This document shows, one piece after another, positions 17,601-34,865 of a stretch of 64,000 nucleotides of DNA; the first letter of the stretch is position 1; each line of letters begins with the position of its first letter. Below the pieces are notes generated by a model. That model was not told the DNA's origin. It saw only the letters and a program-made list of their open reading frames with translations, and made no database searches. Source of the stretch: an uncultured bacterium (GTDB lineage Bacteria > Patescibacteriota > Minisyncoccia > Moranbacterales > UBA2206); assembly GCA_903831805.1 (NCBI GenBank), contig CAIKZD010000017.1, positions 77,249-141,248 of the forward strand, read 5' to 3'. The position numbers and the translations under genes are program-made.

Positions 17601-17607
17601 AAATTTT

Positions 17608-18816: not shown

Positions 18817-18844
18817 AAGTATTTTACTTTGTTCGAAAACAAAA

Positions 18845-18870: not shown

Positions 18871-18955
18871 GGTGCCGAAGGAGAGAATCGAACTCTCATG
18901 GAATTGCTCCCGCGCGATTTTGAGTCGCGTGCGTCTACCGTTCCGCCACTTCGGC
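18870..18955 (-). tRNA. tRNA-Leu (anticodon CAA), CCA encoded
   Basis: Reverse complement GCCGAAGTGGCGGAACGGTAGACGCACGCGACTCAAAATCGCGCGGGAGCAATTCCATGAGAGTTCGATTCTCTCCTTCGGCACCA: 7-bp acceptor stem, 3-bp D stem, anticodon loop CT-CAA-AA, long variable arm, GTTCGATTC T-loop. Confidence 0.9.
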
Positions 18956-19011
18956 AAGTTATTTTGTGTTTTGCTCCTTCTATAGTACAATAAGGATAAC
19001 ACTTAGACATT

Positions 19012-19803
19012 ATGGCAAAAATAATTTCATTAGTCAACCAGAAAGGCGGAGTGGGCAAAACCACCTCGGCTATCAACCTGGCGACCTATTTGGCCGCGGC
19101 CGGGAAGTTTGTGCTGCTCTGCGACCTTGATCCACAAGGCAATGCTTCGTCCGGCTTGGGACTAGACGTGCGTAACATCAAAAAAAGCCTTTATCATTCC
19201 ATGATCATTGGGGAGCATCCGTCGAAAATCATTATCCGCACGGAAACTTTTGGTCATGATCTGATTCCGGCTTCGCAAGATTTGGCCGGTGCCGGTATCG
19301 AGCTGGTGCATATGGAAAATCGTGAATTTCGACTGTATAATGTGCTGCGAGAAATCCGCACCAACTATGATTACATCATCATTGATTCGCCGCCGAGTCT
19401 TGGCCTGCTCACAATCAATGGTCTCGTGGCCAGCGATGAAATCATCATCCCAGTGCAGACGGAATATTTCGCGCTGGAAGGACTGAGTCAGCTCCTGAAC
19501 ACAATTGATCTAGTGCGTGACAACTTGCAGCCCAATTTGAAAATTATGGGCGCGCTGCTTACGATGTATGACAAGCGGAACCGTTTGGCGCGCCAAGTAG
19601 TGCGAGAAATTCAGGATCATTTTCCCGGACATGTCTTCGATTCGATCGTGCCGCGCTCGGTGCGGTTGGCGGAAGCCCCCGGTTTTGGCAAATCAATTTT
19701 GAGTTTTGATGCTTTTTCCAAAGGGGCGCGGGCGTATAAAAATCTGGCGCGGGAAATCATTGAATTGGATAAAAAGGATAATAAAAAAGGATTTAGCGTA
19801 TAG
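19012..19803 (+). CDS. parA: Chromosome partitioning ATPase ParA/Soj
   Basis: KIISLVNQKGGVGKTTSAINLA deviant Walker A; 263 aa. Confidence 0.92.
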   Translation: MAKIISLVNQKGGVGKTTSAINLATYLAAAGKFVLLCDLDPQGNASSGLGLDVRNIKKSLYHSMIIGEHPSKIIIRTETFGHDLIPASQDLAGAGIELVHMENREFRLYNVLREIRTNYDYIIIDSPPSLGLLTINGLVASDEIIIPVQTEYFALEGLSQLLNTIDLVRDNLQPNLKIMGALLTMYDKRNRLARQVVREIQDHFPGHVFDSIVPRSVRLAEAPGFGKSILSFDAFSKGARAYKNLAREIIELDKKDNKKGFSV

Positions 19804-19826
19804 GGTCAATTTTAACTTTTATATTT

Positions 19827-20777
19827 ATGGCACAAAACTATGGATTAGGCAGGGGACTCTCCTCCCTTATCCCGCAAAAAAAACCTCCAGTACAAACTTC
19901 AGATGACGTAATCAGCGAGCCCAAAGAAGATTTCAACTATTTTGGGAATCGGGGAAATGTTTCCGCAGGCATCGGAAAGATGGCTGAGGAAAAGAAAGCG
20001 GGTCTCGATGAAAATGTCATTCAAGAAGTGGCGGTGGCCAGCATTATTCCCAATCCGTATCAACCGCGTTTGGAATTTAATGAAGAAAAATTGCAGGAAT
20101 TGTCCAACTCGATTAAGACCCACGGTATCATCCAGCCTTTGATCGTCACTAAAAACGAGGCCGGGTTCGAGCTGATTGCGGGGGAAAGAAGATTGCAAGC
20201 GGCCAAGTTGGCCGGACTCTTAAAGGTGCCAGTGATTGTGCGCGAAGCGAGCGAGCAGAATAAATTCGAATTGGCCATTATTGAAAATGTGCAGCGCCAT
20301 GATTTGAATCTGGTGGAAGAAGCCAAGTCGTATAAAAAGTTGGCGGAAGAATTTGACTTAAGTCAGGAGGAGATTGCTCAAAAAATCGGCAAGAGCCGCA
20401 GTGTGATCGCTAACCGTATGCGCCTCCTTACTTTGCCGATCGAAATCCAAAAAGCGTTGACACTTGGAAGCATAACTGAAGGTCATGCCAAGCTGCTTTT
20501 GGCTATTCCGAATCCGGAAAAACAACGGGCTTTTTTTGAAATGATTTTGAAAGATAAGTTGACGGTGCGCCAGACCGAAAGTCGGACCAATGAAATTTCG
20601 GTGCGCACACACAAACGAAAAATTTCCGTTGACCCGGAAACAAAAAACTTGGAGGACAACTTTTCGGCCGTCCTTGGCACTAAAGTCCGAATCAAGAAGT
20701 CCGGCACTGGCGGACGCATTGTAATTGAATATTATTCGCCGGAAGAGCTGGATGGAATTTTAGGCAAGATAAAATAA
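19827..20777 (+). CDS. parB: Chromosome partitioning protein ParB/Spo0J
   Basis: GIIQPLIVT...GFELIAGERRLQAAKLAG ParB box; HTH; 316 aa. Confidence 0.9.
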   Translation: MAQNYGLGRGLSSLIPQKKPPVQTSDDVISEPKEDFNYFGNRGNVSAGIGKMAEEKKAGLDENVIQEVAVASIIPNPYQPRLEFNEEKLQELSNSIKTHGIIQPLIVTKNEAGFELIAGERRLQAAKLAGLLKVPVIVREASEQNKFELAIIENVQRHDLNLVEEAKSYKKLAEEFDLSQEEIAQKIGKSRSVIANRMRLLTLPIEIQKALTLGSITEGHAKLLLAIPNPEKQRAFFEMILKDKLTVRQTESRTNEISVRTHKRKISVDPETKNLEDNFSAVLGTKVRIKKSGTGGRIVIEYYSPEELDGILGKIK

Positions 20778-20787: not shown

Positions 20788-21768
20788 ATGAATAAAAAAT
20801 ATTTAACGGCCGGGTTTGTATTGGCGGTGGTCTTGGTCGCCGGATTTTTATTTTGGAAAAAAAATAATCAAGCGGCTGTTCTCAAAAATGGCTCTAAAAC
20901 TCAGTCGCTGGATATTTCCCAAGTTGTTCCATACACCGCGCCTAAAACGCCAGTCAAACATATCTTCATTGTGCTGGAAGAAAACAAGGATTATGCCGCA
21001 GTCGTGGGCAACACTAAAGATATGCCGTACTGGAATTCTTTGTCCGGTACATATGCGAGCGCGGACAACTATTATGCCAACACTCATCCTTCGGTGGGCA
21101 ATTATTTCATGTTGACGGCCGGGAAAATCATCACTAATAATGATGGCTATGCCAAGACGATTGACGATGACAATATAGTGCGGCAGCTCATGGCGGCCGG
21201 TAAAACCTGGAAAGAATATTCGGAAGATCTGCCAGCTGTTGGTTACACCGGTGGCAACGTCGGCAATTACAGTCAGCACCATAATCCATTGTCCTATTTT
21301 TCCGATGTGCGCAATAACCCACAGCAGGCGCAAAACCTGGTGCCTTTCTCTCAGTTGGCCACCGATATCACCAATAACACTTTGCCGGAATATGCTTTTA
21401 TCGTGCCCAATATGATTAATGATGCACACAGCTGTCCCGCTAGTGGACCGTGTAATGAACTCGCGGCGGCGGACAAATGGCTGAAAGAAAAAATTGATCC
21501 ACTCGTAAAAAGCCCGGAATTTAGCATGCCCGGCGGGGGACTGCTCATTCTCACTTTCGATGAAGCGGACGCATCAGACAAAACCAATGGCGGGGGACGC
21601 ATCCCCTGGGTCTTGGTAGGCCCGGATGTGAAGAAAGGTTATGTCAGTCATACTTTCTACCAACAAGAAAACACTTTACGTTTTATGGCAGAGGAAGCTG
21701 GTTTGACCACTTTTCCCGGGGCGGCAGCCAACGTAAGCAGTATGCAAGAATTTATGCAAGGCAATTAG
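20788..21768 (+). CDS. Phosphoesterase-family protein (AcpA / non-haemolytic phospholipase C-like), membrane-anchored
   Basis: N-terminal TM anchor; HIFIVLEENKDY and downstream conserved blocks typical of PF04185-type phosphoesterases. Confidence 0.65.
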   Translation: MNKKYLTAGFVLAVVLVAGFLFWKKNNQAAVLKNGSKTQSLDISQVVPYTAPKTPVKHIFIVLEENKDYAAVVGNTKDMPYWNSLSGTYASADNYYANTHPSVGNYFMLTAGKIITNNDGYAKTIDDDNIVRQLMAAGKTWKEYSEDLPAVGYTGGNVGNYSQHHNPLSYFSDVRNNPQQAQNLVPFSQLATDITNNTLPEYAFIVPNMINDAHSCPASGPCNELAAADKWLKEKIDPLVKSPEFSMPGGGLLILTFDEADASDKTNGGGRIPWVLVGPDVKKGYVSHTFYQQENTLRFMAEEAGLTTFPGAAANVSSMQEFMQGN

Positions 21769-21770
21769 AT

Positions 21771-23429
21771 TCAATTCACAAGTTTCGAAATAGACACTTG
21801 CCCGAAATTTTGGCGGCTATCAATTGGGTAGTCGTTTTCTTTTTCAGCTGAAGAATTTTTTACATTAGCCTCTATATAGAAAAGGGGTATATGCAGTCGG
21901 ATATTGTCTGGTCGTGGGGTTTGCAGCAAGGTAAAATTTTGTTCTTCAGCTAAATATTGTAAGGCTTTGGAAAAATTGGATAAATAGCGCGGGTCACCTG
22001 TCAGTTGCGCTTCTTTTTGATTGTCTGAGTTAGCTATAATGTATTGCAACATCGGTTCGATTTCTCCCAGCACGACAAAGTGCTCATTGCTGCGGTTTTT
22101 AGCGGTTAGCTCGTGGGCGTTGGTGGCGATAACTTGTAGATTGACCAAGGCCACCGCTAGAAAAAGCAGGACGATCAGGAAAGAATAAAAACGGGCAAAT
22201 TTTCGGATAGGATATTCAGCCAAAAAACCAAGGAAGAGGAAAGGTAGGAAAAAGATATGGATGAAATAGCGGAAATCCACAAAGCCGGCGTTGACAATCA
22301 TGGTCATTACGAAAAATGACAGGATTGAATAGAGCGCGATCAGATGCAAAAAATATTTTTTACTTTCATCTTTTTCACTGAAACATCGATGGATGAATAA
22401 GGCATAGCCAAGGATTGAAAATATGAGACCCAGGAGCAGGATTTTTTTAGAGTTGGGTAGTTCTTGGGTTCGGAGGCGCACTCCGGAAACGACAGTGTTA
22501 TTCCGGAAGAGAGCTAGGTAGGAAAGTGTACAGGCGTTGGCTCCGTCAGAAGAAGCCATGTAGGTGTTGGCTTCTATGTGACAATCCACTGCATTGACAA
22601 ACATGGTGCGCAGAGAATTTTTTCTATCTTGACCGACCGAGCCATGCGAAGTGAAGTTGTTCAGAAAAATTTTAGTGTTGGAAAAGTTAGCTTGAAACTC
22701 ACTGATGATTTGTGGCACGTTCAGAATAAAAGCGATACATAGCACAGCGGCCATTTTTTTCCACAAGGTTTTATTTTTGAGCCACAAATAAACAAAAGCA
22801 AAAAAAAGCGTGGCTGGCAAGAGCCCCATTAGGATGGCGTGCAATTGGAAGCCAATGCCCAGGGCTATGCCCAGAGAAAGTATCCACATCCAGTGTGTCT
22901 GTTCTTTTTTAACCAATAACTCATGTAGTGAAAGCAAGAACAAGAGGACAAAAAAGGGAATGATATTCGGATTCCACGCGAAGCGCGAATATTGGATGGA
23001 AAAGGAAGAAATGGCGTAAAGACCAGTTAGACTCAGGGATATATTTTGGTTGAAATAGCGTCTAACAAAAAGATAAAAAAGCGGCAGTGACAAAATTGAA
23101 AAGAAAAGGATTGGGTAAACTGTTGTGTCGGGCTGGGTGCCAAAAATCTGGGCACTCATAATTTGGAAATAATAAAAGATTGGGCCGAGGTGGAAAATTT
23201 TACTATGCGGCCCGCCCGAGCCGGTCATATCCGGGCCGAGGAGCGGCCAGGCGGTGTGTCCTTGCACGACATTACGCACCAATGTGGCTTCGGCCACTTG
23301 ATCATTTTCGAATTCCAACCAGGCATGAAAATGATAAGTGCGCAAAAAAATCCCGACCACGATTATTGCAATCAATAGCCATATCTTATAGCTGACTTTC
23401 TTCAGCTGCAAAAAGAAATCCTTGTTCAT
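21771..23429 (-). CDS. GT-C family glycosyltransferase (ArnT/PMT-like, 4-amino-arabinose/mannosyltransferase-like)
   Basis: 552 aa polytopic; N-terminal LRTYHFHAWLEFENDQ...NPNIIPFFVLLFLLSL pattern; paralog of 30996..32615. Confidence 0.7.
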   Translation of the reverse strand: MNKDFFLQLKKVSYKIWLLIAIIVVGIFLRTYHFHAWLEFENDQVAEATLVRNVVQGHTAWPLLGPDMTGSGGPHSKIFHLGPIFYYFQIMSAQIFGTQPDTTVYPILFFSILSLPLFYLFVRRYFNQNISLSLTGLYAISSFSIQYSRFAWNPNIIPFFVLLFLLSLHELLVKKEQTHWMWILSLGIALGIGFQLHAILMGLLPATLFFAFVYLWLKNKTLWKKMAAVLCIAFILNVPQIISEFQANFSNTKIFLNNFTSHGSVGQDRKNSLRTMFVNAVDCHIEANTYMASSDGANACTLSYLALFRNNTVVSGVRLRTQELPNSKKILLLGLIFSILGYALFIHRCFSEKDESKKYFLHLIALYSILSFFVMTMIVNAGFVDFRYFIHIFFLPFLFLGFLAEYPIRKFARFYSFLIVLLFLAVALVNLQVIATNAHELTAKNRSNEHFVVLGEIEPMLQYIIANSDNQKEAQLTGDPRYLSNFSKALQYLAEEQNFTLLQTPRPDNIRLHIPLFYIEANVKNSSAEKENDYPIDSRQNFGQVSISKLVN

Positions 23430-23462
23430 TGTGATTTTAGGGTGGGGTGAGTTTAAATTGTT

Positions 23463-25421
23463 TTAAAATCGACTGATGAGCCAGTCCCAAAAACGCACGA
23501 AGGAGTTGGCGGTTGGATGCACCGATAAAATAAAGCCGTTCCGCGGGGCTTGAGAAAAATCGAAATCATTTTTAAGATCGCCCAAGATTGGGACATTTTC
23601 CCGTACTGTCGGTCGCGGATCGGGGCGGCCATCAGTTGCGGGATCGAGCCGGGCGCCCTGCATAAAATCGTCTTCTATAAATTTTAAATAGGCGTCAAAA
23701 CTCAGTGTTTGATGATCAATGTAACCTTTTTTAGCATACGGGCTAATGACCAGACTCGGAACTCGTAGTCCATAGCCATTTTGATCAACCACTGGCGGCG
23801 TGACATGATCATAAAATCCGCCCCAGTCATCCCAGGCCAGGATAATAGCAGAGTCTTTCCATTCCGGACTTTGCATGACAGCGTTTATTATGCTAGTGGT
23901 GTAAGCTTGGCCATCGCTAATAAGGGCTGGAGAGTGTTCGCTATTAGTCTGATTGGGGACAATCCAAGACACGCTGGGCAGCGTGTCGTTTTTAGCGGCG
24001 GTAATAAATTTATTGATATCTTGAATGTTTTGTAATTGGTTATTTTGTTTCACCGTTTCAAAATCAACCAAGGGATTCCAATAGCTGGAGATGTGGGGAT
24101 TTTGCGGCAAGGGCGCACAAGTCATGGCGTCATCGTCGCAATCCGGTTGCGCACCTTGGTCTAAATAATAGCCCCAACTGACATTATATTTATGCAATAA
24201 ATAAGTGATATCTGTCCAAGCATAGTCCGGGTTGTTTTTGGGTAATTTCGGACTTTGCAATTTATTTTGACAGCTCATTGGGTCACTCGATTTACACTTG
24301 GCTGACCAAGATGAAACCATATAGAGGTGAGCGATCAAGCTCCAGGAGGCGTTCGGTTCGAACATATGGTCTTGTAAGACAAAATTTTTGGCGTAAGTCC
24401 AATAATTGGGAATTTCCGCGTCAGTGTGATAACCCACTACATCCGGTAAACCTTTATTAGTCGCGCAGCTTGGATCAGGATTATTTTTACACGCTTGCTT
24501 AATGGCTGCTTCTTCTTGGACGATAAACCCATCCATCTTGCCACTATTGATGTCACCGACCGCGTCGCTAGCTTGGTGTGGTCCGCCGGAATTTTGATCT
24601 TGCACGTTATGGAAGGGCTTTATGCAAGTCTTAGTGTTAGGGTCGGGAATGCAAACGGTTGGTTGGTCATTCTTCATCGGAATACCATCCGCGCCAGGGA
24701 ACGTGCCGAAATAGGAATCGAAAGAGCGATTTTCCTGCATGATAAAGATGACGTGTTTGATCTTATGGATGTCGTCGTCCGTGGAGGTTTGTAGGGCGAC
24801 GTTGCCCGTAGTGTCCAGATTGTAAAGCTTATTCCAAGGCATCTGTTTGTTCCCAATTATGAAAACAACTAGACCGGCTAAAAAAATAAAACCAATAATT
24901 AATATGAACCAAGAACGCTTGCTTAACTTAGGAAAATGCAAGCGATCTATTTTTGCGATTAAGTGTGGAAAAATTAACTTCCAAGCGAAATAGGCTACGG
25001 CCGCGGAAAGTATCAAACTAGTAGAAATATCCACCCAGTGATGTACGCCGGCTAGTACTCGAGCAGCGCCGACTATGGCGGCGGCCACAAAGAAGAGTGA
25101 GCCAGCTTTTTTTCGGAAACAAAAAATGGCGGCGGCCACTGCGCCTAAAATCAGCGTATGGTCCGAAGGGAAGCCATTATCGGCGTCGTGCGGGATAAGT
25201 GGGACAAAATGGCTAGCCACGAACGGACGAGGATCATAATAAGCCAAAGACAATAGTTTGGCTGCGGCGTAGGTCAGTGGCAGCGCTAGCAGGGCAAAAA
25301 ATAAAAAGCGCCGGCGTTCGACTGCGGGCAATCGGAAAAGAAACCACAGGGCGGCGGCCAAAACCAAAAAGATGAAATCTTTAGCCAGGAAAATTATAAG
25401 CAGGTTGAATAAATTAGACAT
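23463..25421 (-). CDS. PAP2 phosphatase domain fused to phosphoesterase (phospholipase C/acid phosphatase) domain
   Basis: N-terminus: [11 protein letters not shown]...[11 protein letters not shown]2 motifs in a 6-TM region; C-terminus: [23 protein letters not shown] phosphoesterase signature. Confidence 0.75.
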
Positions 25422-25447
25422 GAGGAGTAGTACTTTTGTTAGTTAAA

Positions 25448-26617
25448 TTATTTCTTATACAGATAGAAGAAATCTTTGGCATAGCCGTTCAAATATTCTT
25501 TGGAGCCGTCAGTCAATTCTTTGGTCAAAGTCGTAGAAGTGTATTTTCCTCCGCCGGCCGGCTCGAAAATGTTGAACCGCACCCAGATGGGATTGATGTC
25601 CAACTGGATGGCATTAACCGCGCCGGCGGTTTTTAGAGCAGCGGCCAGGGTGTCTGGGGTGAGATTGTTGCCGACGGCGAAAATCAAATTGCCTTTGGCG
25701 GTGAGGCCGATGCCAGAACGCCAAGTATAGATGCCCACCGTGCCAGCGGCCAAGCGACCCCAAAGCAGTTTATTTTTTGGGTCAGACACGCTGATATTTC
25801 CGTCTTGGATAAGCATTGGGCAATTTTGGCGAATAAACAGCATGTCGCTGCCAAAAGACTGGCCGGAATAATCCACAATTTTCAAGCTCCCGTCTTTATA
25901 ACCAACCAGCGTGCCTAGATCATTTTTGAGAGGCAGGTAAGTGGTGCTGCCGACAATCATCCCGTATTGACCATCTTTATATTGGAAGCCGCCATCAAAA
26001 GCGGAAATAAGATTGCCACTAGCTAAAATATCTTTGGGAATCACGCCCGGTCCGGGTTTTCCCACTGGCCCGCCGGGTTGCTTTGTGCCGGCTACGCTGC
26101 CCATTTGCATGACACTCATATCCATCTGTACTAAAGTCACGCTGGCATAGGACCTGTCCGGATCAGGGCGGACAAAGGTATAAGCCATCACCTCTTGGCC
26201 GGGAAAAAGACTGAGGGGGTGGTCGCGCCATACGCCTTCACCGTCCAGCGGTGGGAAAGAGTTAATAAGACTAATCGGATTCAAATCTAAATTTCCGCCG
26301 CTGATGTTGGATGCGCCGGCATCTTCGAATCGGGGCGGTTTATCGGCGTGTAAGTTGTTAGTCAAACGTTGCAATTGATCGGAAGTATTGAAAAAAATCT
26401 TTTCAAGATAAACGACCCGGTTATCGCCCAATAGTGGTCGCAGAACATTATCCGTAAAAACGGCCGCCGCCCCCAGATTGAGTTTCAAGAAGAATAGAGC
26501 GCCTAGCAAAAGCAAACACCCGGCCAAAATTATTTTTATGACCCAGTGTATTTTTCGGCGTTTCTTTTTTCCAGAATTTTCAACCGGTGTGGCCGGTGTT
26601 TGAGAAGTTTCTTCCAT
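25448..26617 (-). CDS. Membrane-anchored phosphodiester glycosidase-like protein (DUF2233-like)
   Basis: N-terminal TM; C-terminal NAIQLDINPIWVRF-type block resembles the phosphodiester glycosidase family; assignment tentative. Confidence 0.45.
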   Translation of the reverse strand: MEETSQTPATPVENSGKKKRRKIHWVIKIILAGCLLLLGALFFLKLNLGAAAVFTDNVLRPLLGDNRVVYLEKIFFNTSDQLQRLTNNLHADKPPRFEDAGASNISGGNLDLNPISLINSFPPLDGEGVWRDHPLSLFPGQEVMAYTFVRPDPDRSYASVTLVQMDMSVMQMGSVAGTKQPGGPVGKPGPGVIPKDILASGNLISAFDGGFQYKDGQYGMIVGSTTYLPLKNDLGTLVGYKDGSLKIVDYSGQSFGSDMLFIRQNCPMLIQDGNISVSDPKNKLLWGRLAAGTVGIYTWRSGIGLTAKGNLIFAVGNNLTPDTLAAALKTAGAVNAIQLDINPIWVRFNIFEPAGGGKYTSTTLTKELTDGSKEYLNGYAKDFFYLYKK

Positions 26618-26649
26618 AGATAGGCTATTTTTGCACTAAGGATTAAAAT

Positions 26650-28752
26650 TTAGGATTTTTTCCAATATTGCCCCAACCAGGTGATGCCGGCTGGCAAATG
26701 CTTTATCCAGAAAGGCCAATTATGCTCCCCGGGAAAAGGTATTAAATCGGCTTGGAAATCCTTGTTCTTCAATAGGGTGAGTACGTTATTGCCATCGGCA
26801 AGATCAGCTGAGCGCTTATCCGTTATCATTATCACCCTAGTAGTATTATCTTTCAATGTTGGAATGTAGTCAATCGGAGAATTTTCTTGGACTATTTGTT
26901 TGGAAGTTATAAAGGATTTAGTGAGGGGTGTGATGGGAAGTTCGCCGTAGCCGGAAAGGGAGATGGCATAGCCGAAAACATCCTGATGTTTCAAAGCGAT
27001 ATTCAAAGCGCCGAAACCGCCTTCAGATAGGCCGCCAATCGCTCTATGACCAGCATCTGGAATGGTTGGAAAATTATTATCTACGTAATTAACTACAGTC
27101 TTAGCGATAAAATCTTCATTAGGACCTAGCGCGGAATTGATATATTGCGTATCCACGTTATTACTGCCGTTACCATCCGGGAAGACCGCAATGAATGGTG
27201 CAATGCTCCCATCAGCAATCCTTTGATCCAAAGTTTGTTGTGCGCGTCCATGATACAGCCAGTCAGAGGCTTCTCCCGGCGAGCCATGCAAAAGATAGAG
27301 GACGGGATAGTGTTGGCTTTTATCGTTCGGATCGTACCCCTTGGGCAGATAGAGGAGGACTTCACGTGATTTGCCCGGCGCCATTTGTAAAATCGTCTTC
27401 ACGACCAAAGAGCCTTGTTGCAGCCGGGTTTGACTGGCTGTGTCGGCCGCCAATGCATTTGCTTTTAGTAGATCCGAATCATATTGTTTGCCGAAGGGAT
27501 TGTAATTTGGGAAAAAGCGGATCGTGTCGATCAGTCTGTCCGGCCAAAAAGGAAAGATTCGGATATCGTCCGTAAATTGGTCAGGATTCACTTTATACCA
27601 AATGGTCGCTGCAAAAAAAATACTCACCAGAAAAATGGTTATCCCGAGCATGATTTTGGCCATGCCGCCCAAGATTTTTCTGGACATTGTTTTAGGGCGA
27701 TGGACATTGTCTTTACAGCTAGTCCCAAAAAAGCCAGAAACTCTGCCTGATTTTTCTTGGGAAATCAAGCGATGATATAGGCCAAGACTGACCAAAAACG
27801 GGACAAGATAGTAGATGATCCTGAAAAGGACAGAGGCTGCCACAGCGACAGGCAGCGGGGCGCCCAGGATGTGATAGATAGCTACTTCGGACAGGTCTTG
27901 CACGCCCAGGCCGCCAGGAATGAAAGAGACCAAGCCGGCGATAACTGACAGGAAAAAACCAGCCATGAGCGCCATGAACGAAAATGTAAAGCCGAAAGCC
28001 ATGAAGCAAAATTCGAAAATCAAAAGACACAGCAGCCAATCAGCTAGGAAAGTGGCCAACATCCGGACAAAATCTCCTGGTCGTTTCTTGCTCAAAGCAA
28101 GACCGTTGTCCAAGGCTTGGCTGGTGTTTTTCAAGGATACTTGGATATCAATTTTGATGAGGGCGTGGACTAGCCAAGCTATGCTACTAAAAAGTTTCTG
28201 GCGGATTTTTTTCGAGAACAAGAAAAAAGTGAGGGCCAGGAAGAAAACGGCAAAAATCATGAGGGCCGCTTGGAACGCCGGCGCAAAACGCGCGGCAATC
28301 ATCCCGGTCAAAAGGGCATAGGCGACCGAGAAGGCGGAAAAGAACAGAATGACTAAAAAATTCAAATACGAGAAAAAAAGTGAAGCAGCCATGATGTGGG
28401 AGCCTTTATCTTTTTCGTTCTTGAGTAGCATCACGCGTAAGGAATAGCCGACGGTGCCGCCGAGGGTCAGTAGGTTGTTGAAAGCGATGGTGACTACGCC
28501 GATGATGAACAGTTTTTTCCTTTCTGTCGACAGGCCAAAAAGGATGTTGAGCAGGGTGTAAGCTTCGGCCGCTAAGACTAAGGAAACGCCCGTTGCCAAA
28601 AAGGCGGCGATGGCAAAAAACCAATTGGCTCGCGCCAGAACGGACAGGGATTTATTTTTTTCTAAGAATAAAACTAAGCCGAAAGTCAACAGTAAAAGAC
28701 CAAAAATTATTTTGGGCCAGGGCAGGCGCTTAATGGGAGAGGAATTTTTCAT
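26650..28752 (-). CDS. MprF-type flippase (LPG-synthase TM / UPF0104) domain fused to alpha/beta-hydrolase esterase domain
   Basis: N-terminal ~330 aa polytopic (GG..G..L..NLLTLGGTVGYSLRV); C-terminal HYPVLYLLHGSPGEASDW...GGLSEGGFGALNIALKH putative-esterase family motifs (GxSxG). Confidence 0.7.
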   Translation of the reverse strand: MKNSSPIKRLPWPKIIFGLLLLTFGLVLFLEKNKSLSVLARANWFFAIAAFLATGVSLVLAAEAYTLLNILFGLSTERKKLFIIGVVTIAFNNLLTLGGTVGYSLRVMLLKNEKDKGSHIMAASLFFSYLNFLVILFFSAFSVAYALLTGMIAARFAPAFQAALMIFAVFFLALTFFLFSKKIRQKLFSSIAWLVHALIKIDIQVSLKNTSQALDNGLALSKKRPGDFVRMLATFLADWLLCLLIFEFCFMAFGFTFSFMALMAGFFLSVIAGLVSFIPGGLGVQDLSEVAIYHILGAPLPVAVAASVLFRIIYYLVPFLVSLGLYHRLISQEKSGRVSGFFGTSCKDNVHRPKTMSRKILGGMAKIMLGITIFLVSIFFAATIWYKVNPDQFTDDIRIFPFWPDRLIDTIRFFPNYNPFGKQYDSDLLKANALAADTASQTRLQQGSLVVKTILQMAPGKSREVLLYLPKGYDPNDKSQHYPVLYLLHGSPGEASDWLYHGRAQQTLDQRIADGSIAPFIAVFPDGNGSNNVDTQYINSALGPNEDFIAKTVVNYVDNNFPTIPDAGHRAIGGLSEGGFGALNIALKHQDVFGYAISLSGYGELPITPLTKSFITSKQIVQENSPIDYIPTLKDNTTRVIMITDKRSADLADGNNVLTLLKNKDFQADLIPFPGEHNWPFWIKHLPAGITWLGQYWKKS

Positions 28753-30443
28753 TTGTTATAATTTTTGGAGCGCGTCAACTTAGATAGGGTGAAAGTGGAA
28801 GTAATCAGATTGACCGGACTGCCAGCATAGACTAAAAAGCGATCTTCCCAGATTGGTTGGAATTTCTTCTTGTAATTATATATCCCTTCAAAGGAAAATA
28901 AAATAGATGCATTTTTATAAATTTCTTGTAACGCCTTTTCCTTGAGGCTGTCGGACGGAAAAGTATTTTCTTTAGAAATCGGAGACAGCCCCAAGTCGAA
29001 GGTTTTATAACCTTTGGCAAAAAAATAAAAAAACATTTTGATGAAAAGAAAATCCATCGTGCCGTTCAAGGCGTCCAGCTTATGGCGCATCAGATCGATG
29101 GTCGCTTCGCCAGTCTTCCAAGACGGGATCTCGTTGGCGAAAGCAATAATTTCGCCCTGTGCATCTTCCACCACGAAAATGCGACACTCACTCAGATATT
29201 CTTCATCAAAATAGCCGACGGTAAAATTGCGTTCGTGCCGCCCGGATTTTTTCAGCCATTCATCCGACAGCATTTTCAATTTTTCCAACATTCCCGATGA
29301 ATGGGGTGGTTCTAGGCAAATGAAGCTATAGCCTCGCTTTTCAAATTTGCGCACGATCCGTGAGAAGTCCTTGCTCGGGCCTAATTCTGTTACAAACTTC
29401 GCGAGATCGATGAAAGCTTCCTGGCCGATGCGCAGATAATTGAGCTTGGCCACTTTGCAGATGGCGCAAAACTCGGCGGTAACGCAATAAAAAGCTGGCC
29501 GCCAACCATAATCTCTAGTGTAGTGGATAAATTCTTCCACTGTGGCTAGCGTTTCACTGGTTGGCCCGATCGGGTCGCCCAGGGCCATCGCGACGCCATT
29601 GGCTAATTCAAAGGAGATGAAGCTGGTTTTGTTTTTATTGAAAAAATAATGTTTACTCGGCCATAATTTGAAGTAGTCCAATGATGAGCGGCCGAACTTA
29701 TCTAAAATCTCCGCGGCCGCTTGGCGCTCTAGGCCGTAACGTTGCAACTCATAGATCGGAAGAAAAACGCTGTAGGCCGCTAAGCTGAGCGCCGAGATGC
29801 CCAAGAAACGGAGCAGCTCCAAAAAATGAGTGGCGTAATGGCTGTGCGGCACTAGGTCGCTATTACCTAGTAATAGATATTCTCGCAAGGTGCGCAGGAG
29901 CGCTTCGCTCAAATGAAAATTGATGCCAAATTCTCGTTGGTCCAAAAACCAAAAACCAGCGGTGCCGCATAGCACTGCTAGAAGAAAACTGCCGGCAGCC
30001 AATCTCACTCCTTGAAAAATATTTTCTCTGGCATAGCGCACGGTGAAATATTGTCGATATTCAAAAAGAAGGACCAGAGTCAGAAGCGCGGTCATAAAAT
30101 AAACCGGATGAGCATGCAGGATATCCACTGAGGATATGATTATCAACATGCCTATAATTGCCCACCAAGCCACAATTTTTCTTCGATGAATGTGATAGGA
30201 AAGGTAGATTAAGGTAAAACCGAGTACGACTGTCAAAAGACTGCTCCGATGGAAAAGCCCGAATGGAGTTACCGTCAATAGCAAGGTAGAAAAATTATTG
30301 GAATGAAAAAAGAATTCTTCAAGAAGGGCCAATAGCCCGTTGAAAAAAGTGAGAACAGCAATCAAGTCGACCTGCCAAGGCGTGGAAAAATAGACACACA
30401 GGTTTTTGTGGAAAAAACGATAGAGCTTGGAGAGTTTACCCAT
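28749..30443 (-). CDS. mprF: Aminoacyl-phosphatidylglycerol synthase (MprF synthase domain, DUF2156) with TM anchor
   Basis: N-terminal TM helices, then a C-terminal domain matching the lysyl/alanyl-PG synthase catalytic region; overlaps the downstream flippase gene by 4 nt. Confidence 0.7.
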   Translation of the reverse strand: MGKLSKLYRFFHKNLCVYFSTPWQVDLIAVLTFFNGLLALLEEFFFHSNNFSTLLLTVTPFGLFHRSSLLTVVLGFTLIYLSYHIHRRKIVAWWAIIGMLIIISSVDILHAHPVYFMTALLTLVLLFEYRQYFTVRYARENIFQGVRLAAGSFLLAVLCGTAGFWFLDQREFGINFHLSEALLRTLREYLLLGNSDLVPHSHYATHFLELLRFLGISALSLAAYSVFLPIYELQRYGLERQAAAEILDKFGRSSLDYFKLWPSKHYFFNKNKTSFISFELANGVAMALGDPIGPTSETLATVEEFIHYTRDYGWRPAFYCVTAEFCAICKVAKLNYLRIGQEAFIDLAKFVTELGPSKDFSRIVRKFEKRGYSFICLEPPHSSGMLEKLKMLSDEWLKKSGRHERNFTVGYFDEEYLSECRIFVVEDAQGEIIAFANEIPSWKTGEATIDLMRHKLDALNGTMDFLFIKMFFYFFAKGYKTFDLGLSPISKENTFPSDSLKEKALQEIYKNASILFSFEGIYNYKKKFQPIWEDRFLVYAGSPVNLITSTFTLSKLTRSKNYNK

Positions 30444-30978
30444 GAATTATTTTCTTAAGTTTGTTTTTTATCCGGTGGACAGCCACGCGTAGAGATGTTT
30501 CTGATTTGTGAGTTGTCTTGACCATCTCTTTATAACTCAAGCCCAAGACAAAGCGTAGCGTAAAAAGTTGTTGTTCCTTGGGGTGGAGCTTTTTAACCAG
30601 GCGATAAATTTTTTCTACCATTATTTTTTCACTTAAGTTTTCATTTTCATCAGTGAGCGTCTGAATAGTTTCCAAATCGAAGAAAGAAATGGTTTTCTTC
30701 TCTCGATAATAATCAATCAGGCGATTTTTAGCGATCCGCCAGACCCAAGCGGAAAAATCTCCGGCGCTTTCGTTAAAGTGCTGAATATTTTTTAAGATAC
30801 GCAGAAAAACATCCTGCGTCAAATCTTCCGCTACATCCCTATTCATAACTTTTTTGATAAAATGGCCGAAGAAAAGCGGATTGAAATAGCCAAACATGGC
30901 TGTGGCAGCGTGTGGATTGCCTTTTTGGATGGAAGCTGCCAGCGTATTCAGATAACTTTTTTTTAAAAATTTTGGCAT
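30436..30978 (-). CDS. ECF-subfamily RNA polymerase sigma factor
   Basis: Region 2 (DLTQDVFLRILKNIQHF...AWVWRIAKNRLIDYYR) and region 4 HTH (LSYKEMVKTTHKSETSLRVAVHRIKNKL); 180 aa. Confidence 0.85.
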   Translation of the reverse strand: MPKFLKKSYLNTLAASIQKGNPHAATAMFGYFNPLFFGHFIKKVMNRDVAEDLTQDVFLRILKNIQHFNESAGDFSAWVWRIAKNRLIDYYREKKTISFFDLETIQTLTDENENLSEKIMVEKIYRLVKKLHPKEQQLFTLRFVLGLSYKEMVKTTHKSETSLRVAVHRIKNKLKKIIHG

Positions 30979-30995
30979 ATTATAGTAATATTCCC

Positions 30996-32615
30996 TTAGT
31001 TGTTTAATTTTAAAATAGCCATATTTTTATACAACTTATAATTAAATACAGAACGTCCCAGATGAGTTTCACTCTGAAGCTGTTTGTCCGAGGACGGTTT
31101 CTCAAGGAAGATAACTGGGACATTAGGATTAATATTCTTCTCTTTATATGCTCGGATGATTTCCACGCCAGCCTTGGCCGCTAAATAATAAAAAGGTTTA
31201 TAGTAGCGGGAGAAATAAGCGCTGTCACCATCCAAATAAATCTTTCGAGGCGGTTTAATGCCGCTAATAATATAACTTGTCATATCGTACGCTTCTCTTA
31301 GCGATACTGAACGCGTGTCGCTGTAGGCCATCTTAGTGTAGGCTTGGTAGTTTTGTAAGAGCGTTTGAAATTGTAACAGTATTATCAAGAATGTGGCTAT
31401 TCCCAGGGAAATATATTTAAGTTTACCCTGGTTTTTTTTCCAAAGAAATTCTAGCCATAAGCCGGCAAAAACAAATGGCAAGAAAAAAAGAACAATGTAG
31501 TAGCGGATGGAAGCTTGGTCGATGATTGGCACCATCACTAAAAAGGTTACAGTGGCATAGGCGCAGATTAACATTAAAAAATCTTTTCGTTGTGTGTTGG
31601 TTTCTTGTTTCCAAAAATAAACTAGCAAGCCATAGCCGCCCAAGGTAAAGATTAGACTGCAAAGAATCAGGAGAATCGCGTCTAGCTTGAAAGGTTTATT
31701 TTTCTGAAAAAAACTGTTAACAATATTCCCCGTGTCGCATTTGTCGCCAGTGCCCAAGGAAGTCAGGATGTGTAAATTAGCGGTTGATTGGCAAAAAATT
31801 GCCGCTTCTAAATGTGTCATCAGCTTGCCGCCGCCGGCATTCTGCGAAAAGGCGGCTTTAAATTTATTTGCATTCGAATTGCCATGCGTAAAGTTGTAAA
31901 TAAATTGGCTTGTGTTGGCCAGCAAGACGAAAAATAAAATCACCACACCTTTTTTCAAGAGGATCAGTACTGGCATTTTTTTAACGGCGGCCAAGTAAAG
32001 AAAAGTCAGGACCGTCAGAATCGGCAAAGTAAAAATCAAAATGGCGTGCAATTGAATGCCCACACCGACGGCGATGCCGACTAGAACCGCACTCCACCAT
32101 TTCTCATCGCCGCTTTCCAATAGGGATAAAATGCCCAGAAGAAAAAGTAGGACGAAAAAAGGGATGGAATTAGGATTGAATGCGAAGCGAGCATAAGTAA
32201 TCATGAAATAGGAAAGGCTCAGCAAAAAAGTCAGGAGCAAAGAAAGTTCCTGGGTAAAATATTTTTTGGCGAATAGATACAAAAGTGGAATAGTCAGAAT
32301 GGAAAAGAACAAATCAGGATAGGCTAATTGCCAAGGCGAGGCTCCAAAAATTTTCGCCGACAGGATTTCTAAATGATAGAACCATGGGCCGAGATTGAAA
32401 TGGGTGTTGCCAGCTTCCGGTCCGAGCATGATCCAAGAGCTTTTGCCAGCCAAAACATCGTCCACTAGGGCAGCGTCTCGGGCCTGGTCAGGATTGAAAG
32501 TCAGCCAGTCGCGGAAATGATAGGTGCGCAAAAAGACGCCGAAAAAAATGATCGCCAACAGCATCCATAGATGATATGGGCCGGTTCTAATTTTTTTGAA
32601 AAGAGTATTCCTCAT
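30996..32615 (-). CDS. GT-C family glycosyltransferase (ArnT/PMT-like), paralog
   Basis: 539 aa; same N-terminal architecture as 21771..23429 (LRTYHFRDWLTFNPDQ...NPNSIPFFVLLFLLGI). Confidence 0.7.
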   Translation of the reverse strand: MRNTLFKKIRTGPYHLWMLLAIIFFGVFLRTYHFRDWLTFNPDQARDAALVDDVLAGKSSWIMLGPEAGNTHFNLGPWFYHLEILSAKIFGASPWQLAYPDLFFSILTIPLLYLFAKKYFTQELSLLLTFLLSLSYFMITYARFAFNPNSIPFFVLLFLLGILSLLESGDEKWWSAVLVGIAVGVGIQLHAILIFTLPILTVLTFLYLAAVKKMPVLILLKKGVVILFFVLLANTSQFIYNFTHGNSNANKFKAAFSQNAGGGKLMTHLEAAIFCQSTANLHILTSLGTGDKCDTGNIVNSFFQKNKPFKLDAILLILCSLIFTLGGYGLLVYFWKQETNTQRKDFLMLICAYATVTFLVMVPIIDQASIRYYIVLFFLPFVFAGLWLEFLWKKNQGKLKYISLGIATFLIILLQFQTLLQNYQAYTKMAYSDTRSVSLREAYDMTSYIISGIKPPRKIYLDGDSAYFSRYYKPFYYLAAKAGVEIIRAYKEKNINPNVPVIFLEKPSSDKQLQSETHLGRSVFNYKLYKNMAILKLNN

Positions 32616-32699
32616 TTCTAAATAATCTTATTATTGCGCCGCTAGACAATGCTAGAGTTAATAATAATTTTTATAAATGAAGAAAAAATGAAGGCAAAA

Positions 32700-33722
32700 T
32701 TAGTTGTGGAGTTGGGGAAGAAGGACGATAACTTCCGTACCCACGCCTGGGGTGCTGGTTATTTCCAGTTTCCCGTGGTGTTGAGTGACAATCTTTTTGA
32801 CAATCGATAGTCCCAGGCCAGCGCCGCTATACTCTGCGGAGCGAGCCTGATCGGCTTTATAGAAGGCTTCGGTGATGTGTGGCAGATCTTTTTGAGCGAT
32901 GCCGATGCCAGTATCTTTGATGGACAGTTTCAATTGACTACTACTTGTCTGGACGGAGACATGGATCTTGCCGCCTGCGGGTGTGTAGTCGATGGCATTT
33001 TTCAAAATATTTAAAAACAGCCTTTCGACATCCAGTCGGTTGCCGAGCATGTTGCCGGGTGTGTTTCGAACAAACGATAAGGTGAGATTTTTTCTTTTAG
33101 CCAAGCTTTGGAAAGTGGTGGTCATTTTTTCCACCAGTGTGTCTAGCGAGATTAGCTCAAGGGGTTGTTCTGATGTGTAGTTATGCCTGGAGAGAAAAAG
33201 CAGTTGATCCACCATGGCTGACATCCGATCGATCTCTTCTAAATTACTAAGCATGACTTGGCGGAACTCTTCATTGGTGACGGTTTTCTTTTTGAGGCTC
33301 ACTTCACAGTCTGTTTTCATAATCGCCAGGGGCGTACGCAAATCATGCGAGGCGTCGGCTGTAAAACGTTTTTGTTTTTCCAAAACTTCTTCGATTGGGC
33401 GCAAATTTTTGCCCGCTAGAAAAAACCCTAGTCCACTGAAAAAAAAGAGGATGATCACGTTACCAATAATTAGCACTTCTTTCTCTTGCTCGTCAGCTTC
33501 TTCAATGGCCACTTGTCTGAGGGCATGGCCCCTAAACTTGTCATTGATGGTTTCTTTGATATTTTTGGCCAGACTGATGTACAGACCGAAACTAAAAACA
33601 ATCATGATGAGGGCGATAATGATTAAGTAGAAAGTGGCCAGCTTGAGGCGCGCCCACAGGAAAAGATTATTCCTTGAACCGGTAACCCACGCCGTGAATT
33701 GTTTCAAATAATTTTTTGCCAT
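32700..33722 (-). CDS. Sensor histidine kinase
   Basis: Two TM, H-box RFTADASHDLRTPL, HATPase_c N/G boxes (LKNAIDYTPAGG, GAGLGLSIVK). Confidence 0.9.
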   Translation of the reverse strand: MAKNYLKQFTAWVTGSRNNLFLWARLKLATFYLIIIALIMIVFSFGLYISLAKNIKETINDKFRGHALRQVAIEEADEQEKEVLIIGNVIILFFFSGLGFFLAGKNLRPIEEVLEKQKRFTADASHDLRTPLAIMKTDCEVSLKKKTVTNEEFRQVMLSNLEEIDRMSAMVDQLLFLSRHNYTSEQPLELISLDTLVEKMTTTFQSLAKRKNLTLSFVRNTPGNMLGNRLDVERLFLNILKNAIDYTPAGGKIHVSVQTSSSQLKLSIKDTGIGIAQKDLPHITEAFYKADQARSAEYSGAGLGLSIVKKIVTQHHGKLEITSTPGVGTEVIVLLPQLHN

Positions 33723-34341
33723 CGTTTTTTTGGAATTTATTCCTTAAATTTTTCACATGGACATCCACAATGTTGCTGAAAGAGTCAAAAGAAAAGTCCC
33801 ATAAGCTACTGATGATCTGTTCGCGGGTCAGTACTTGTCCGGGATGGCGCATAAAATATTCCAGCAGGCTGTACTCTTTGAGAGTGAGGGAGATTTCTGT
33901 ATCAAGATAAAAAACTTTTCTGGTGCTGCTGTTTAGGTTGATGTGGTGTCTTGTGAGTTCCATTGGTATAACGACAGCCGGTCTTCTTAATAAGGCCCGA
34001 ATGCGCGCCAGTAATTCTTCGAGCGAAAACGGCTTAATCATATAATCATCCGCGCCGGCGTCCAGCCCGATGATTTTGTCTTCGGTCGTGTCGCGGGCGG
34101 TCAGCATCAGGATCGGCAAGGTAATGCCAAGTTGGCGAATATTTTTACAAACCTCCAGTCCGCTGATTTTGGGGAGCATGACGTCTAAAATAGCCAAGTC
34201 ATAATCTTCGCCGCGGCTTCGCAATCTGGCTTGCCCGGTTTCCCCATCTAGCAAGATATCTACCGCAAACCCTTCGTTTTCCAAGCCATTTTTCAGGCTT
34301 TTCGCTAATTTTTGATTGTCTTCAATGAGGAGTATTTTCAT
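33667..34341 (-). CDS. OmpR-family response regulator
   Basis: Receiver domain (MKILLIEDN...LAILDVMLP...K) plus winged-helix trans_reg_C; overlaps the kinase gene by 56 nt. Confidence 0.9.
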   Translation of the reverse strand: MKILLIEDNQKLAKSLKNGLENEGFAVDILLDGETGQARLRSRGEDYDLAILDVMLPKISGLEVCKNIRQLGITLPILMLTARDTTEDKIIGLDAGADDYMIKPFSLEELLARIRALLRRPAVVIPMELTRHHINLNSSTRKVFYLDTEISLTLKEYSLLEYFMRHPGQVLTREQIISSLWDFSFDSFSNIVDVHVKNLRNKFQKNDGKKLFETIHGVGYRFKE

Positions 34342-34513
34342 AGCTATTATTATATACGCAAGTGAAGGAAAAATGAAGCCAGTGCAACTTTTTTCGGCGC
34401 CGCTGGAAATTCATATTTTCTTCATTTGTGGAAGTTAAACTAAACGGGTAATTTTTTAAAGGGTCGATTGAAATGAAATGGTAATAATTAAAATTAATTA
34501 AATAATAATATTT

Positions 34514-34828
34514 ATGGATAAATTTAAAAATCAGAAAGTGTATAGCATTGTTGCGATCGTAATTGTGCTAATAGGAGTGTTTTATTTTTGGCAACATTCT
34601 TCAACTAAGAACACCGCTGCTAAAAGTAAGACGACGCAAGTCGCTGGCGTCAAAAAAAGTAAGATTGGCAAGAAGAAAACCGCTGGTCAAACTACGCCTG
34701 TGGCGCCAGCTGCCGGTACGACGACTATTCCGGCTGCACCGAGCGCGACTATAAATACGCCTGCTAGTGCAGCTCCTAATGCTACAACTTCCGATACTAC
34801 TGCTCCAGATGCGGCCGTTCAGCAATAA
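34514..34828 (+). CDS. Small membrane-anchored Ala/Thr-rich protein
   Basis: N-terminal TM (IVAIVIVLIGVFYFW) followed by low-complexity T/A/P-rich tail. Confidence 0.4.
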   Translation: MDKFKNQKVYSIVAIVIVLIGVFYFWQHSSTKNTAAKSKTTQVAGVKKSKIGKKKTAGQTTPVAPAAGTTTIPAAPSATINTPASAAPNATTSDTTAPDAAVQQ

Positions 34829-34865
34829 AATAATTTAACTATGGCATCATAAAATATCATAAATT

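Follow-up and report, generated by a model that had tools for sequence, protein, structure and literature searches.

Nine consecutive minus-strand genes (g10 to g2) in a 64,000-nucleotide stretch of contig CAIKZD010000017.1, hereafter the window, are interpreted here with moderate confidence as a mosaic and probably co-transcribed cell-envelope operon of a likely candidate phyla radiation (CPR) genome, in which a split system for transfer RNA (tRNA)-dependent lipid aminoacylation (module B, g6 and g5) lies within a module comprising an extracytoplasmic function (ECF) sigma factor, a NAGPA-like protein, a PAP2::PF04185 fusion and a GT-C glycosyltransferase (module A; g7, g4, g3, and g2). The type of system in module B is known but its architecture is new: a split MprF whose flippase is fused to a PesT-like esterase, embedded in a sigma-linked phosphoesterase/GT-C module. 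Among the papers searched, none on MprF in CPR was found.

An earlier note had described positions 20788-34341 as an island of ten genes (g1 to g10) for remodelling envelope lipids and glycans under ECF-sigma and two-component control. All ten genes are present as described, with open reading frames (ORFs) exactly where it had placed them. Pfam scores were judged against gathering cut-offs and NCBIfam scores against equivalog cut-offs; every named Pfam family in g1 to g10 exceeds its cut-off, including those of the split MprF and the PAP2-fused phosphoesterase and, marginally, that of the NAGPA-like protein, and NCBIfam was concordant. The Pfam matches agreed with the earlier note on two GT-C proteins, two PF04185 proteins, an ECF sigma factor, and a histidine kinase/OmpR-type response regulator pair. 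Its nine consecutive minus-strand genes are packed in an operon-like manner, separated from g10 to g2 by -56, 84, 17, -8, -4, 32, 26, and 33 nt. The membrane and envelope theme likewise held, with transmembrane (TM) helices predicted in 8 of the 10 proteins and all hydrolytic domains predicted, from hydropathy, charge, and motif placement, to be extracytoplasmic.

A flippase-esterase fusion beside a short MprF-type synthase

The g6 product matches the LPG_synthase_C profile (PF09924) from position 3 to 298 of 298 (214.7 bits) and covers positions 315-836 of the 841-position NCBIfam model of bifunctional MprF with 350 bits (equivalog cut-off 600), far above its 115 bits against the LysX model. 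Its nearest PDB entry is the Bacillus licheniformis LysPGS 4v36 (186 bits), family-invariant residues including the ATIDLMRH motif are in place, and residues 27-228 hold five to six hydrophobic segments. The eight-TM PF03706 flippase is not part of this polypeptide. It forms residues 1-335 of the product of g5, the following gene, and the two genes overlap by 4 nt. A homolog search with g6 found 183 proteins that share its short build (about 550 residues, PF09924 only).

The g5 flippase domain shares 48-52% identity with flippases that stand alone and have about 335 residues (P0136 and those of L091 and L007). According to hydropathy and charge, its eight TM helices are followed by a K/R-rich loop (9 K+R) and then a ninth helix, so that the C-terminal esterase is predicted to lie outside the cell. 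Ser576 (GGLSEGG) and His677 (GEHNW) of the esterase are invariant among the relatives in alignment A3. The nearest PDB relatives of this domain are CE1 feruloyl esterases (7xrt, 86 bits), matches to the mycolyl-transferase-type PS1 and MPT51/Ag85 being distant and weak, and a Pfam scan of g5 gave no match to VirJ (PF06057). An AlphaFold model built on a 10-sequence alignment reached a mean pLDDT (predicted local distance difference test) of 54.5, with the entire TM half below 50, and is therefore unusable for the flippase-esterase geometry.

When 1.84 billion cluster representatives were searched exhaustively with HMMER, the best 150 of 13,000 matches included no other protein with both halves of g5. 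A fused protein would be expected at the top of the ranking, although closer fused orthologs could hide within the 50%-identity cluster of g5 itself, which is represented by a truncated fragment (P0001). The top matches were two stand-alone proteins, the esterase P0135 (48% identity over g5 residues 365-699) and the flippase P0136 (48%, residues 8-332). All 37 metagenome matches to g5 begin at residue 384 or beyond, and a word-indexed homolog search returned only its own fragment and distant single-domain matches. The flippase homologs stop where g5 reads ...YHRLISQEK, Met356 follows some 20 residues on, and the helix at 367-385 matches the N-terminal anchor of free esterases; Met356 is likely the former start of an esterase gene, and the junction looks like the read-through of a one-time intergenic region. 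The identical 700-residue g5 and its neighbours are found again on 18 or more metagenome contigs that were assembled independently, and the arrangement is therefore not an assembly artefact.

Two Pfam-confirmed fusions in other organisms parallel g5: P0191 (862 residues) joins a short MprF synthase through a TM helix to a PF00756 esterase, and P0157 (800 residues) joins a PF03706 flippase to a tandem VirJ (PF06057). Judged by their domains, the three proteins form a set of fusions that join flippase, synthase, and two unrelated esterase families. By analogy they suggest an aminoacyl-lipid esterase of the outer leaflet, comparable to PesT, AcvB, or PA0919, and all three predict that it acts there on the flipped lipid itself.

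Conservation of the esterase-synthase-flippase triad

Scans with single proteins (g6 against genome contigs, g5 against metagenome contigs) found no relatives of the locus; alignment-based scans found them. In the closest relatives of g6 (44-52% identity), adjacent genes form a conserved triad of a PF00756 esterase (330-360 residues, with an N-terminal anchor), the synthase, and a PF03706 flippase of about 335 residues (L007/L008, L009-L011, L091, and L095), often with three to six PMT_2 GT-C genes lying ahead of it. The order that is fused in the window occurs as four separate genes (GT-C, synthase, flippase, esterase) in L013, a Rubrobacter metagenome-assembled genome. A metagenome scan from the esterase side found the synthase directly adjoining in L095, L096, L100, L101, and L102, and the esterase and synthase are adjacent overall in L007-L011, L013, L015, L019, L091, L095, L096, and L100-L102. 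The earlier note had overlooked that the flippase gene also encodes the PF00756 esterase as a fusion; this esterase is a conserved third partner of the split MprF system. A neighbour census with HMMs over 80 species-representative loci with the short synthase placed the flippase immediately beside it in 18, concentrated among the nearest relatives, and the esterase immediately beside it in 3 (4 within 5 kb); an ECF sigma gene stood beside it in none of the 80.

The surroundings of the triad in L007, a 52%-identity relative, deserve a separate mention (6953-8893 and 13894-20484 of that contig). On one side stand a Metallophos phosphoesterase and a Peptidase_S51 gene, and on the other GT87, PMT, GT2-GtrA, FdtA, DegT, and YfhO genes, a full set for surface glycosylation from polyprenyl-phosphate sugars.

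Such neighbours bear on the idea that the aminoacyl-lipid serves as a donor, the tethered PF00756 domain being a transacylase for which a surface glycan or polymer made by the GT-C enzymes is the acceptor of the amino acid, in a tRNA-dependent analogue of Dlt-type D-alanylation. The family includes mycolyl-transferases, to two of which (PS1 and MPT51) g5 has the weak matches given above; GT-C genes stand beside the triad in L007/L008, L009, L013, and L095, with polymer-glycosylation genes of GtrA, GT2, and YfhO type added in L007; and the esterase is physically joined to the exit of the flippase. PMC6103681 also proposes a transferase role for PesT, from alanyl-diacylglycerol (Ala-DAG) to phosphatidylglycerol (PG). 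Against this, the nearest solved relatives of the g5 domain are hydrolases, the parallel flippase::VirJ fusion involves an established hydrolase family, so that fusion need not mean transfer, and no genes for an acceptor polymer were identified. We consider the donor role improbable.

The sigma-linked phosphoesterase module

One contig, L092, carries module A in the order ECF sigma, DUF5667 membrane protein, NAGPA, PAP2::PF04185, a 183-residue protein, and PMT_2 GT-C, with identities to the window proteins of 60% for the sigma factor, 67% for NAGPA, 52% for PAP2, 80% for PF04185, and 52% for the GT-C protein (g2). The DUF5667 and 183-residue genes have no counterpart in the window, where tblastn with the DUF5667 partner gave no match, and g6 and g5 fill the place of the DUF5667 gene. 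The g7 sigma factor, which has regions 2 and 4 only (TIGR02937, 86.1 bits against a cut-off of 42.9), has no anti-sigma gene beside it; the next gene, g6, overlaps it by 8 nt. This overlap and the position of g6 and g5 at the DUF5667 place mark the operon as a mosaic. Module B would have entered module A and cost the sigma factor its presumptive anti-sigma partner; with the insertion at this anti-sigma-like place, the sigma gene now reads straight into the MprF genes. On the evidence of gene order, the ECF sigma factor would belong with the phosphoesterase module and not with the MprF module. Two apparent tandem tRNA genes, noted by eye, precede the sigma module at 6580-6760 of L092; the equivalent place in the window has none.

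The catalytic part of g4 is predicted to lie outside the cell, behind an N-terminal anchor at residues 26-44. Its PF09992 match is marginal, that of its 67%-identical ortholog in L092 is unmarked, and a PDB sequence search with g4 found no meaningful relative. In g3, both active sites are predicted to be extracytoplasmic from the count of helices and charged loops. The PAP2 half has the C2 (PSDH, 85) and C3 (AR-x5-H-x3-D, R121) motifs; in C1 (consensus K-x6-RP) the RP is present, with a lysine spacing of 9 instead of 6. The PF04185 motifs are intact (ENRSFD at 230 and DDWGGFYDH at 531). The nearest PDB entries are AcpA (2d1g) and phospholipases C, and the best NCBIfam matches, all far below their equivalog cut-offs, are the YbjG/SepP undecaprenyl-diphosphatases, phosphatidylcholine-type phospholipase C (PC-PLC), and the Burkholderia acid phosphatase. 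The g3 homolog search found two other PAP2::PF04185 fusions (P0284 and P0285, 70% identity), one of them encoded on L092, making three proteins with g3; its C-terminal domain is 60-70% identical to widespread secreted stand-alone proteins of about 478 residues. The flanking GT-C genes g2 and g8 are paralogs (36% identity over the full length), each with ten hydrophobic segments.

Homologs of the g3 PF04185 domain at 60-70% identity occur in Ktedonobacteria, Chloroflexota, and one Methanoregulaceae archaeon, an unusually high conservation across phyla, which suggests that the domain has spread horizontally. The g3 homolog search returned no self-match, its top match being 70% identical, for which we have no explanation.

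The membership of g1 in the system is doubtful. Its PF04185 motifs are variant or degenerate (LEENKDY, PNMINDAH, and FDEAD), it shares 28% identity with g3 over 151 residues, and its PDB sequence search gave marginal phospholipase C matches only; the PC-PLC and Burkholderia acid phosphatase models are below cut-off for g1 as they are for g3. L092 has no g1 ortholog, and no synteny support for g1 was found.

Two-component genes and candidate operator boxes

The response regulator (g10) clears the equivalog cut-off of RppA only (261.3 versus 250), falling short of PhoB (190.4/296.2), CseB (178/350), and PmrA. The histidine kinase (g9) is below all NCBIfam equivalog cut-offs (RppB 211/400, PhoR 195.2/334.2); its two TM helices (33-51 and 83-101) enclose a sensor loop of about 31 residues, as in kinases of the intramembrane-sensing type. 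The operon has only two sizeable intergenic regions, and a repeat finder detected a 28-nt inverted repeat linking them. Its core 16-mer, ATGAAGAAAA(A/T)ATGAA, contains two ATGAA repeats with an 11-bp period and has 2 copies in the 64 kb against 0.07 expected; direct repeats at this period are the geometry typical of OmpR/PhoB-family sites. After each box comes AGCGGCGC, at 34397-34404 for box 1 and 32636-32643 for box 2, of which the window has 8 copies against 2.5 expected. The boxes fit a candidate response-regulator operator and two-component control of two units, the regulator-kinase pair and g8 to g2, for which the repeated box is the sole sequence evidence.

The kinase and regulator scores also bear on a phosphate-sparing form of remodelling, in which outward phospholipase C-like and PAP2 enzymes would yield diacylglycerol (DAG) that g6, like AlaDAGS and LysX of actinobacteria, converts to a phosphorus-free cationic aminoacyl-DAG under PhoR/PhoB-like control. 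PhoR/PnpS and PhoB are the next-best models for g9 and g10, and g3 has intact PF04185 motifs and the PAP2 motifs C2 and C3. In Pseudomonas, phospholipases C of the PF04185 family belong to the Pho regulon. A Metallophos gene stands beside the triad in L007. Flippase-less MprF homologs with six TM helices make Ala-DAG or Lys-DAG (PMC10580965). However, the PhoR and PhoB scores are well under their cut-offs, no pst or phoU genes occur in the window, and g6 is nearer to canonical MprF than to LysX. The dedicated flippase moreover suggests a charged phospholipid cargo, and in none of the 80 loci elsewhere are the phosphoesterases syntenic with the synthase. This explanation appears rather improbable.

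A probable mosaic operon and its possible mechanism

In the mosaic operon that we favour, a membrane or envelope signal would lead through the response regulator (g10) to expression of the operon, including the ECF sigma factor that lacks an anti-sigma partner. The g6 enzyme would aminoacylate PG, or possibly DAG, at the cytoplasmic leaflet with aminoacyl-tRNA, and the PF03706 domain of g5 would flip the aminoacyl-lipid outward. There the tethered PF00756 esterase would remove the aminoacyl group or, less probably, transfer the amino acid; deacylation would tune the surface charge in the manner of AcvB, PA0919, and AhyD. The enzymes of module A (NAGPA-like, PAP2::PF04185, and GT-C) would take part in outward processing of phosphate-linked head groups, polyprenyl-phosphate carriers, or glycans. 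A more far-reaching version is highly improbable: that the g5 esterase is an aminoacyl-transferase onto a GT-C-built surface glycan or polymer, a tRNA-dependent counterpart of Dlt, in a CPR cascade from two-component system to ECF sigma factor, with PAP2::PF04185 and NAGPA recycling phosphate-linked carriers.

Several results weigh against the mosaic-operon reading as a whole. None of the relatives examined carries modules A and B together, and no PAP2, PF04185, or NAGPA gene occurred anywhere in the 80 short-synthase loci, so that a shared pathway is not implied; the synteny of module A comes from a single contig, and two-component genes occur near the synthase in 12-13 of 84 loci, few of them adjacent, at roughly the background rate. 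The box pattern was set post hoc, and the box was not found in other species. Scans of the window gave 32 sigma-70 promoters against 26.6 +/- 5.6 in shuffled sequence and 28 intrinsic terminators against 18.8 +/- 4.8, neither above chance. In the esterase, the candidate acid residue Asp645 is not conserved.

Genome compaction offers a simpler account, which we regard as possible if unlikely: two-component, GT-C, MprF, and sigma-linked phosphoesterase modules would have accreted independently and share a transcript only, with no common pathway or regulation. The relatives carry the modules apart, L091 only esterase-synthase-flippase and L092 only sigma-DUF5667-NAGPA-PAP2::PF04185-GT-C; the two stand-alone PF04185 homolog genes inspected (68% identity) lie alone in unrelated contexts; and dense gene packing holds across the whole window. 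The absence of phosphoesterase, PAP2, and NAGPA genes from the 80 loci favours this account as well. Accretion explains less readily that module B sits exactly between the sigma and NAGPA genes, with overlaps of 8 and 4 nt and the anti-sigma-like gene displaced, that every product is placed at the membrane or its outer face, and that GT-C genes accompany each module in relatives. If it were true, the locus would be an ordinary, correctly annotated envelope locus.

The synteny implied by the earlier note accordingly holds for parts of the locus, the esterase-synthase-flippase set (with or without GT-C) being kept in relatives and sigma-NAGPA-PAP2::PF04185-GT-C in one contig, but not for the whole island, in which the phosphoesterase, PAP2, and NAGPA genes are near the synthase in none of the 80 loci elsewhere and g1 stands without support. 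Its regulatory claim fared similarly: two-component control gained a sequence-level hint from the repeated box, while the ECF sigma factor goes with the phosphoesterases and not with MprF. As a mosaic, the operon shows small genomes merging modules into one operon, and it would be among the few CPR envelope systems with readable regulatory logic, in the form of two-component boxes and an ECF sigma factor without anti-sigma partner.

Gene order and genomic context

The features of the locus are collected in Table 1. The earlier note had called the plus-strand gene g1 divergent; it is instead convergent with the operon, tail to tail, its stop lying 2 nt from that of g2, and it begins 10 nt after parB, with parA-parB upstream. 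The true divergent genes, orf104 and the DUF347 gene (34514-36185), lie beyond the range that had been noted; they share the intergenic region of box 1 with the response regulator gene and may belong to the same regulon.

Table 1. Features of the envelope locus and its divergent neighbours in window coordinates (aa, amino acids; nt, nucleotides; TM, transmembrane helices)
Feature	Coordinates	Strand	Basis and remarks
g1, short PF04185 phosphoesterase of divergent sequence, N-terminal anchor	20788-21768	+	ORF; 119 bits, profile positions 105-353 only
g2, GT-C glycosyltransferase (PMT_2)	21771-23429	-	ORF, last gene of the operon; 43.7 bits (cut-off 26.1), at least 10 TM
g3, PAP2 (aa 1-195) fused to PF04185 phosphoesterase (aa 221-652)	23463-25421	-	ORF; PAP2 (PF01569) 53 bits (cut-off 27.2), PF04185 227 bits
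g4, membrane-anchored NAGPA-like (phosphodiester glycosidase) protein	25448-26617	-	ORF; PF09992 31.4 bits (cut-off 25), marginal
g5, flippase-esterase fusion	26650-28752	-	ORF, 700 aa
g5 C-terminal PF00756 "putative esterase" serine hydrolase, aa 386-700	26653-27597	-	105.5 bits
g5 linker (aa 336-365) and TM9 (aa 367-385)	27598-27747	-	K/R-rich; hydropathy and charge
g5 N-terminal flippase (PF03706/PplT), aa 1-335	27748-28752	-	8 TM; LPG_synthase_TM 78.7 bits
g6, short MprF-type aminoacyl-lipid synthase	28749-30443	-	ORF; about 6 TM and cytoplasmic GNAT-like LPG_synthase_C, residues 246-539
g7, ECF sigma factor	30436-30978	-	ORF, 180 aa; Sigma70_r2 54.8 bits, r4_2 42.1 bits
g8, GT-C glycosyltransferase (PMT_2/ArnT/YkcB-like)	30996-32615	-	ORF; 41.8 bits (cut-off 26.1), at least 10 TM
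Candidate response-regulator box 2, ATGAAGAAAAAATGAA	32677-32692	+	Inverted; 62-77 nt upstream of g8 start, in the 84-nt gap between g9 and g8
g9, histidine kinase	32700-33722	-	ORF, 340 aa; HisKA and HATPase_c
g10, OmpR-family response regulator	33667-34341	-	ORF, 224 aa; Response_reg 93.8 bits, Trans_reg_C 91.6 bits
Candidate response-regulator box 1, ATGAAGAAAATATGAA	34410-34425	-	69-84 nt upstream of g10 start codon, region shared with orf104/DUF347
orf104, single-TM membrane ORF, 104 aa	34514-34828	+	No Pfam match; divergent from g10
DUF347 membrane protein, 4 repeats	34866-36185	+	194 bits; divergent from g10

The term island did not stand: beyond a local drop in GC (0.39 at 30-32 kb) we found no mobile-element or compositional signature, and horizontal acquisition as a genomic island was rejected, there being no flanking repeats, integrase, or adjoining tRNA. 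The window is chromosomal, with parAB, tRNA-Leu, relA/spoT, topA, dprA, several aminoacyl-tRNA synthetases, and an S13-S11-S4-rpoA-L17 block. A BceAB-BceS-like pairing of g9 with the ABC/FtsX transporter at 16293-18816 was likewise discarded, as tRNA-Leu and parAB intervene and the permease is a 402-residue protein of MacB type. The one taxonomic handle is the S4 protein, which falls, at 90% identity or more, in a cluster whose representative is labelled "Parcubacteria group bacterium"; on this single, thin line a CPR/Patescibacteria origin of the window is likely.

Such an origin bears on an extension of the possible host-lipid scavenging named in the earlier note, in which the outward phosphoesterases and the esterase would act on host lipids for an episymbiont without membrane-lipid synthesis of its own. 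CPR bacteria have been proposed to recycle the lipids of other bacteria, phospholipases are reported in their genomes (PMC12455944), and the hydrolytic domains here are predicted to be extracytoplasmic. The taxonomy, however, is one label, no lipid-uptake or re-acylation gene occurs in the operon or the window, and the window encodes 1-deoxy-D-xylulose-5-phosphate synthase and Mrp/NiFe-hydrogenase-like subunits. The g3 PF04185 subfamily is widespread in free-living Chloroflexota and others, and the enzymes are anchored in cis to the membrane. Both host-lipid scavenging and the associated idea of a minimal organism are speculation, and we give scavenging a low probability.

Four other regions of the window stand apart from the operon. 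Positions 11-6731 (+) encode Mrp/NuoL-like antiporter subunits and a fused NuoC/NuoD-like protein with a NiFe-hydrogenase large-subunit signature; the set resembles a group-4 membrane-bound hydrogenase, which is unexpected for a CPR bacterium of the Parcubacteria group. A 651-residue TrwB/TraG/HerA-like coupling ATPase with a treble-clef zinc finger (43906-45861, +) lies alone amid housekeeping genes, and the alanyl-tRNA synthetase at 48019-49890 (+; 623 residues) stops just past tRNA_SAD, without the usual C-terminal region. At 60045-63597 (+), a Bro-N domain protein and an 829-residue beta-helix protein are encoded where GC is 0.39 from 60 kb on; this stretch may be phage-derived or mobile.

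Comparison with known systems

For regulation and for module A, the known systems offer partial likenesses. Like Sigma-E/CseABC of Streptomyces coelicolor, the locus clusters an OmpR-type response regulator, a histidine kinase, and an ECF sigma factor with envelope genes and has no classical adjacent anti-sigma gene; unlike it, the regulator falls short of CseB, the gene order differs, CseA is missing, and the sigma ortholog in L092 has a DUF5667 partner. The g3 protein has the C2 and C3 motifs of PAP2 lipid phosphatases (PgpB/YbjG/BcrC) and the catalytic motifs of AcpA and phospholipase C of PF04185, but is far below the NCBIfam equivalog cut-offs; the fusion of the two domains was seen only in the lineage of the window. 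The multi-TM PMT_2 proteins g2 and g8 resemble the ArnT/YkcB GT-C transferases.

In the esterase, module B comes close to the pesT-alaDAGS operon of Corynebacterium glutamicum, where, according to PMC10580965 and PMC6103681, a short synthase of six TM helices and a GNAT-like domain, without flippase, stands with a "putative esterase". Short six-TM actinobacterial synthases make aminoacyl-DAG (PMC10580965). PesT, the third type of hydrolase reported with homologs of aminoacyl-PG synthase (aaPGS), influences whether C. glutamicum forms Ala-PG or Ala-DAG, and whether PesT-type esterases beside aminoacyl-lipid synthases are hydrolases or transferases is an acknowledged question (PMC6103681). The pairing of g6 with the C-terminal domain of g5 repeats this synthase/esterase association and is recurrent in relatives, while the window adds a PF03706 flippase fused to the esterase; the link between PesT and g5 is through the description "putative esterase" only. 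The three fusions bear on the role of PesT-type esterases, for which g6 with g5 would make a compact two-gene construct.

VirJ, AcvB, and PA0919 are periplasmic hydrolases of aminoacyl-PG, shown as such by experiment and encoded in an operon with aaPGS (PMC6103681, PMC13197417, and PMC13135905). Like lpiA-acvB, PA0920-PA0919, and Enterococcus AhyD, in which the esterase controls the level of aminoacyl-PG, module B places beside its aminoacyl-lipid synthase a serine esterase that is membrane-associated and predicted to be extracytoplasmic, and the flippase::VirJ fusion P0157 parallels the flippase::esterase of the window. Unlike lpiA-acvB and PA0920-PA0919, whose esterases are of the VirJ family PF06057, g5 has a PF00756 domain with a predicted activity.

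A separate flippase has precedents in gpgSDF of Pseudomonas aeruginosa and hexSDF of Clostridioides difficile, in which a UPF0104/PF03706 flippase is encoded downstream of a lipid-modifying synthase (PMC12713373); their modification is glycosyl, whereas that of the window would be aminoacyl. PplT (PF03706) occurs in 148 architectures, with stand-alone or variously fused proteins being common; the architectures named include none with an esterase, and the synthase and flippase domains of MprF function when expressed separately (bioRxiv 10.1101/2022.03.11.483950). Like the bifunctional MprF of Staphylococcus aureus, Rhizobium tropici, and P. aeruginosa, the window combines an eight-TM PF03706 flippase with a synthase of six TM helices and LPG_synthase_C. 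In contrast to that protein, it does so in two genes with a 4-nt overlap, with the synthase ahead of the flippase, opposite to how the domains follow one another in MprF, and its flippase bears an extra TM helix and an esterase.

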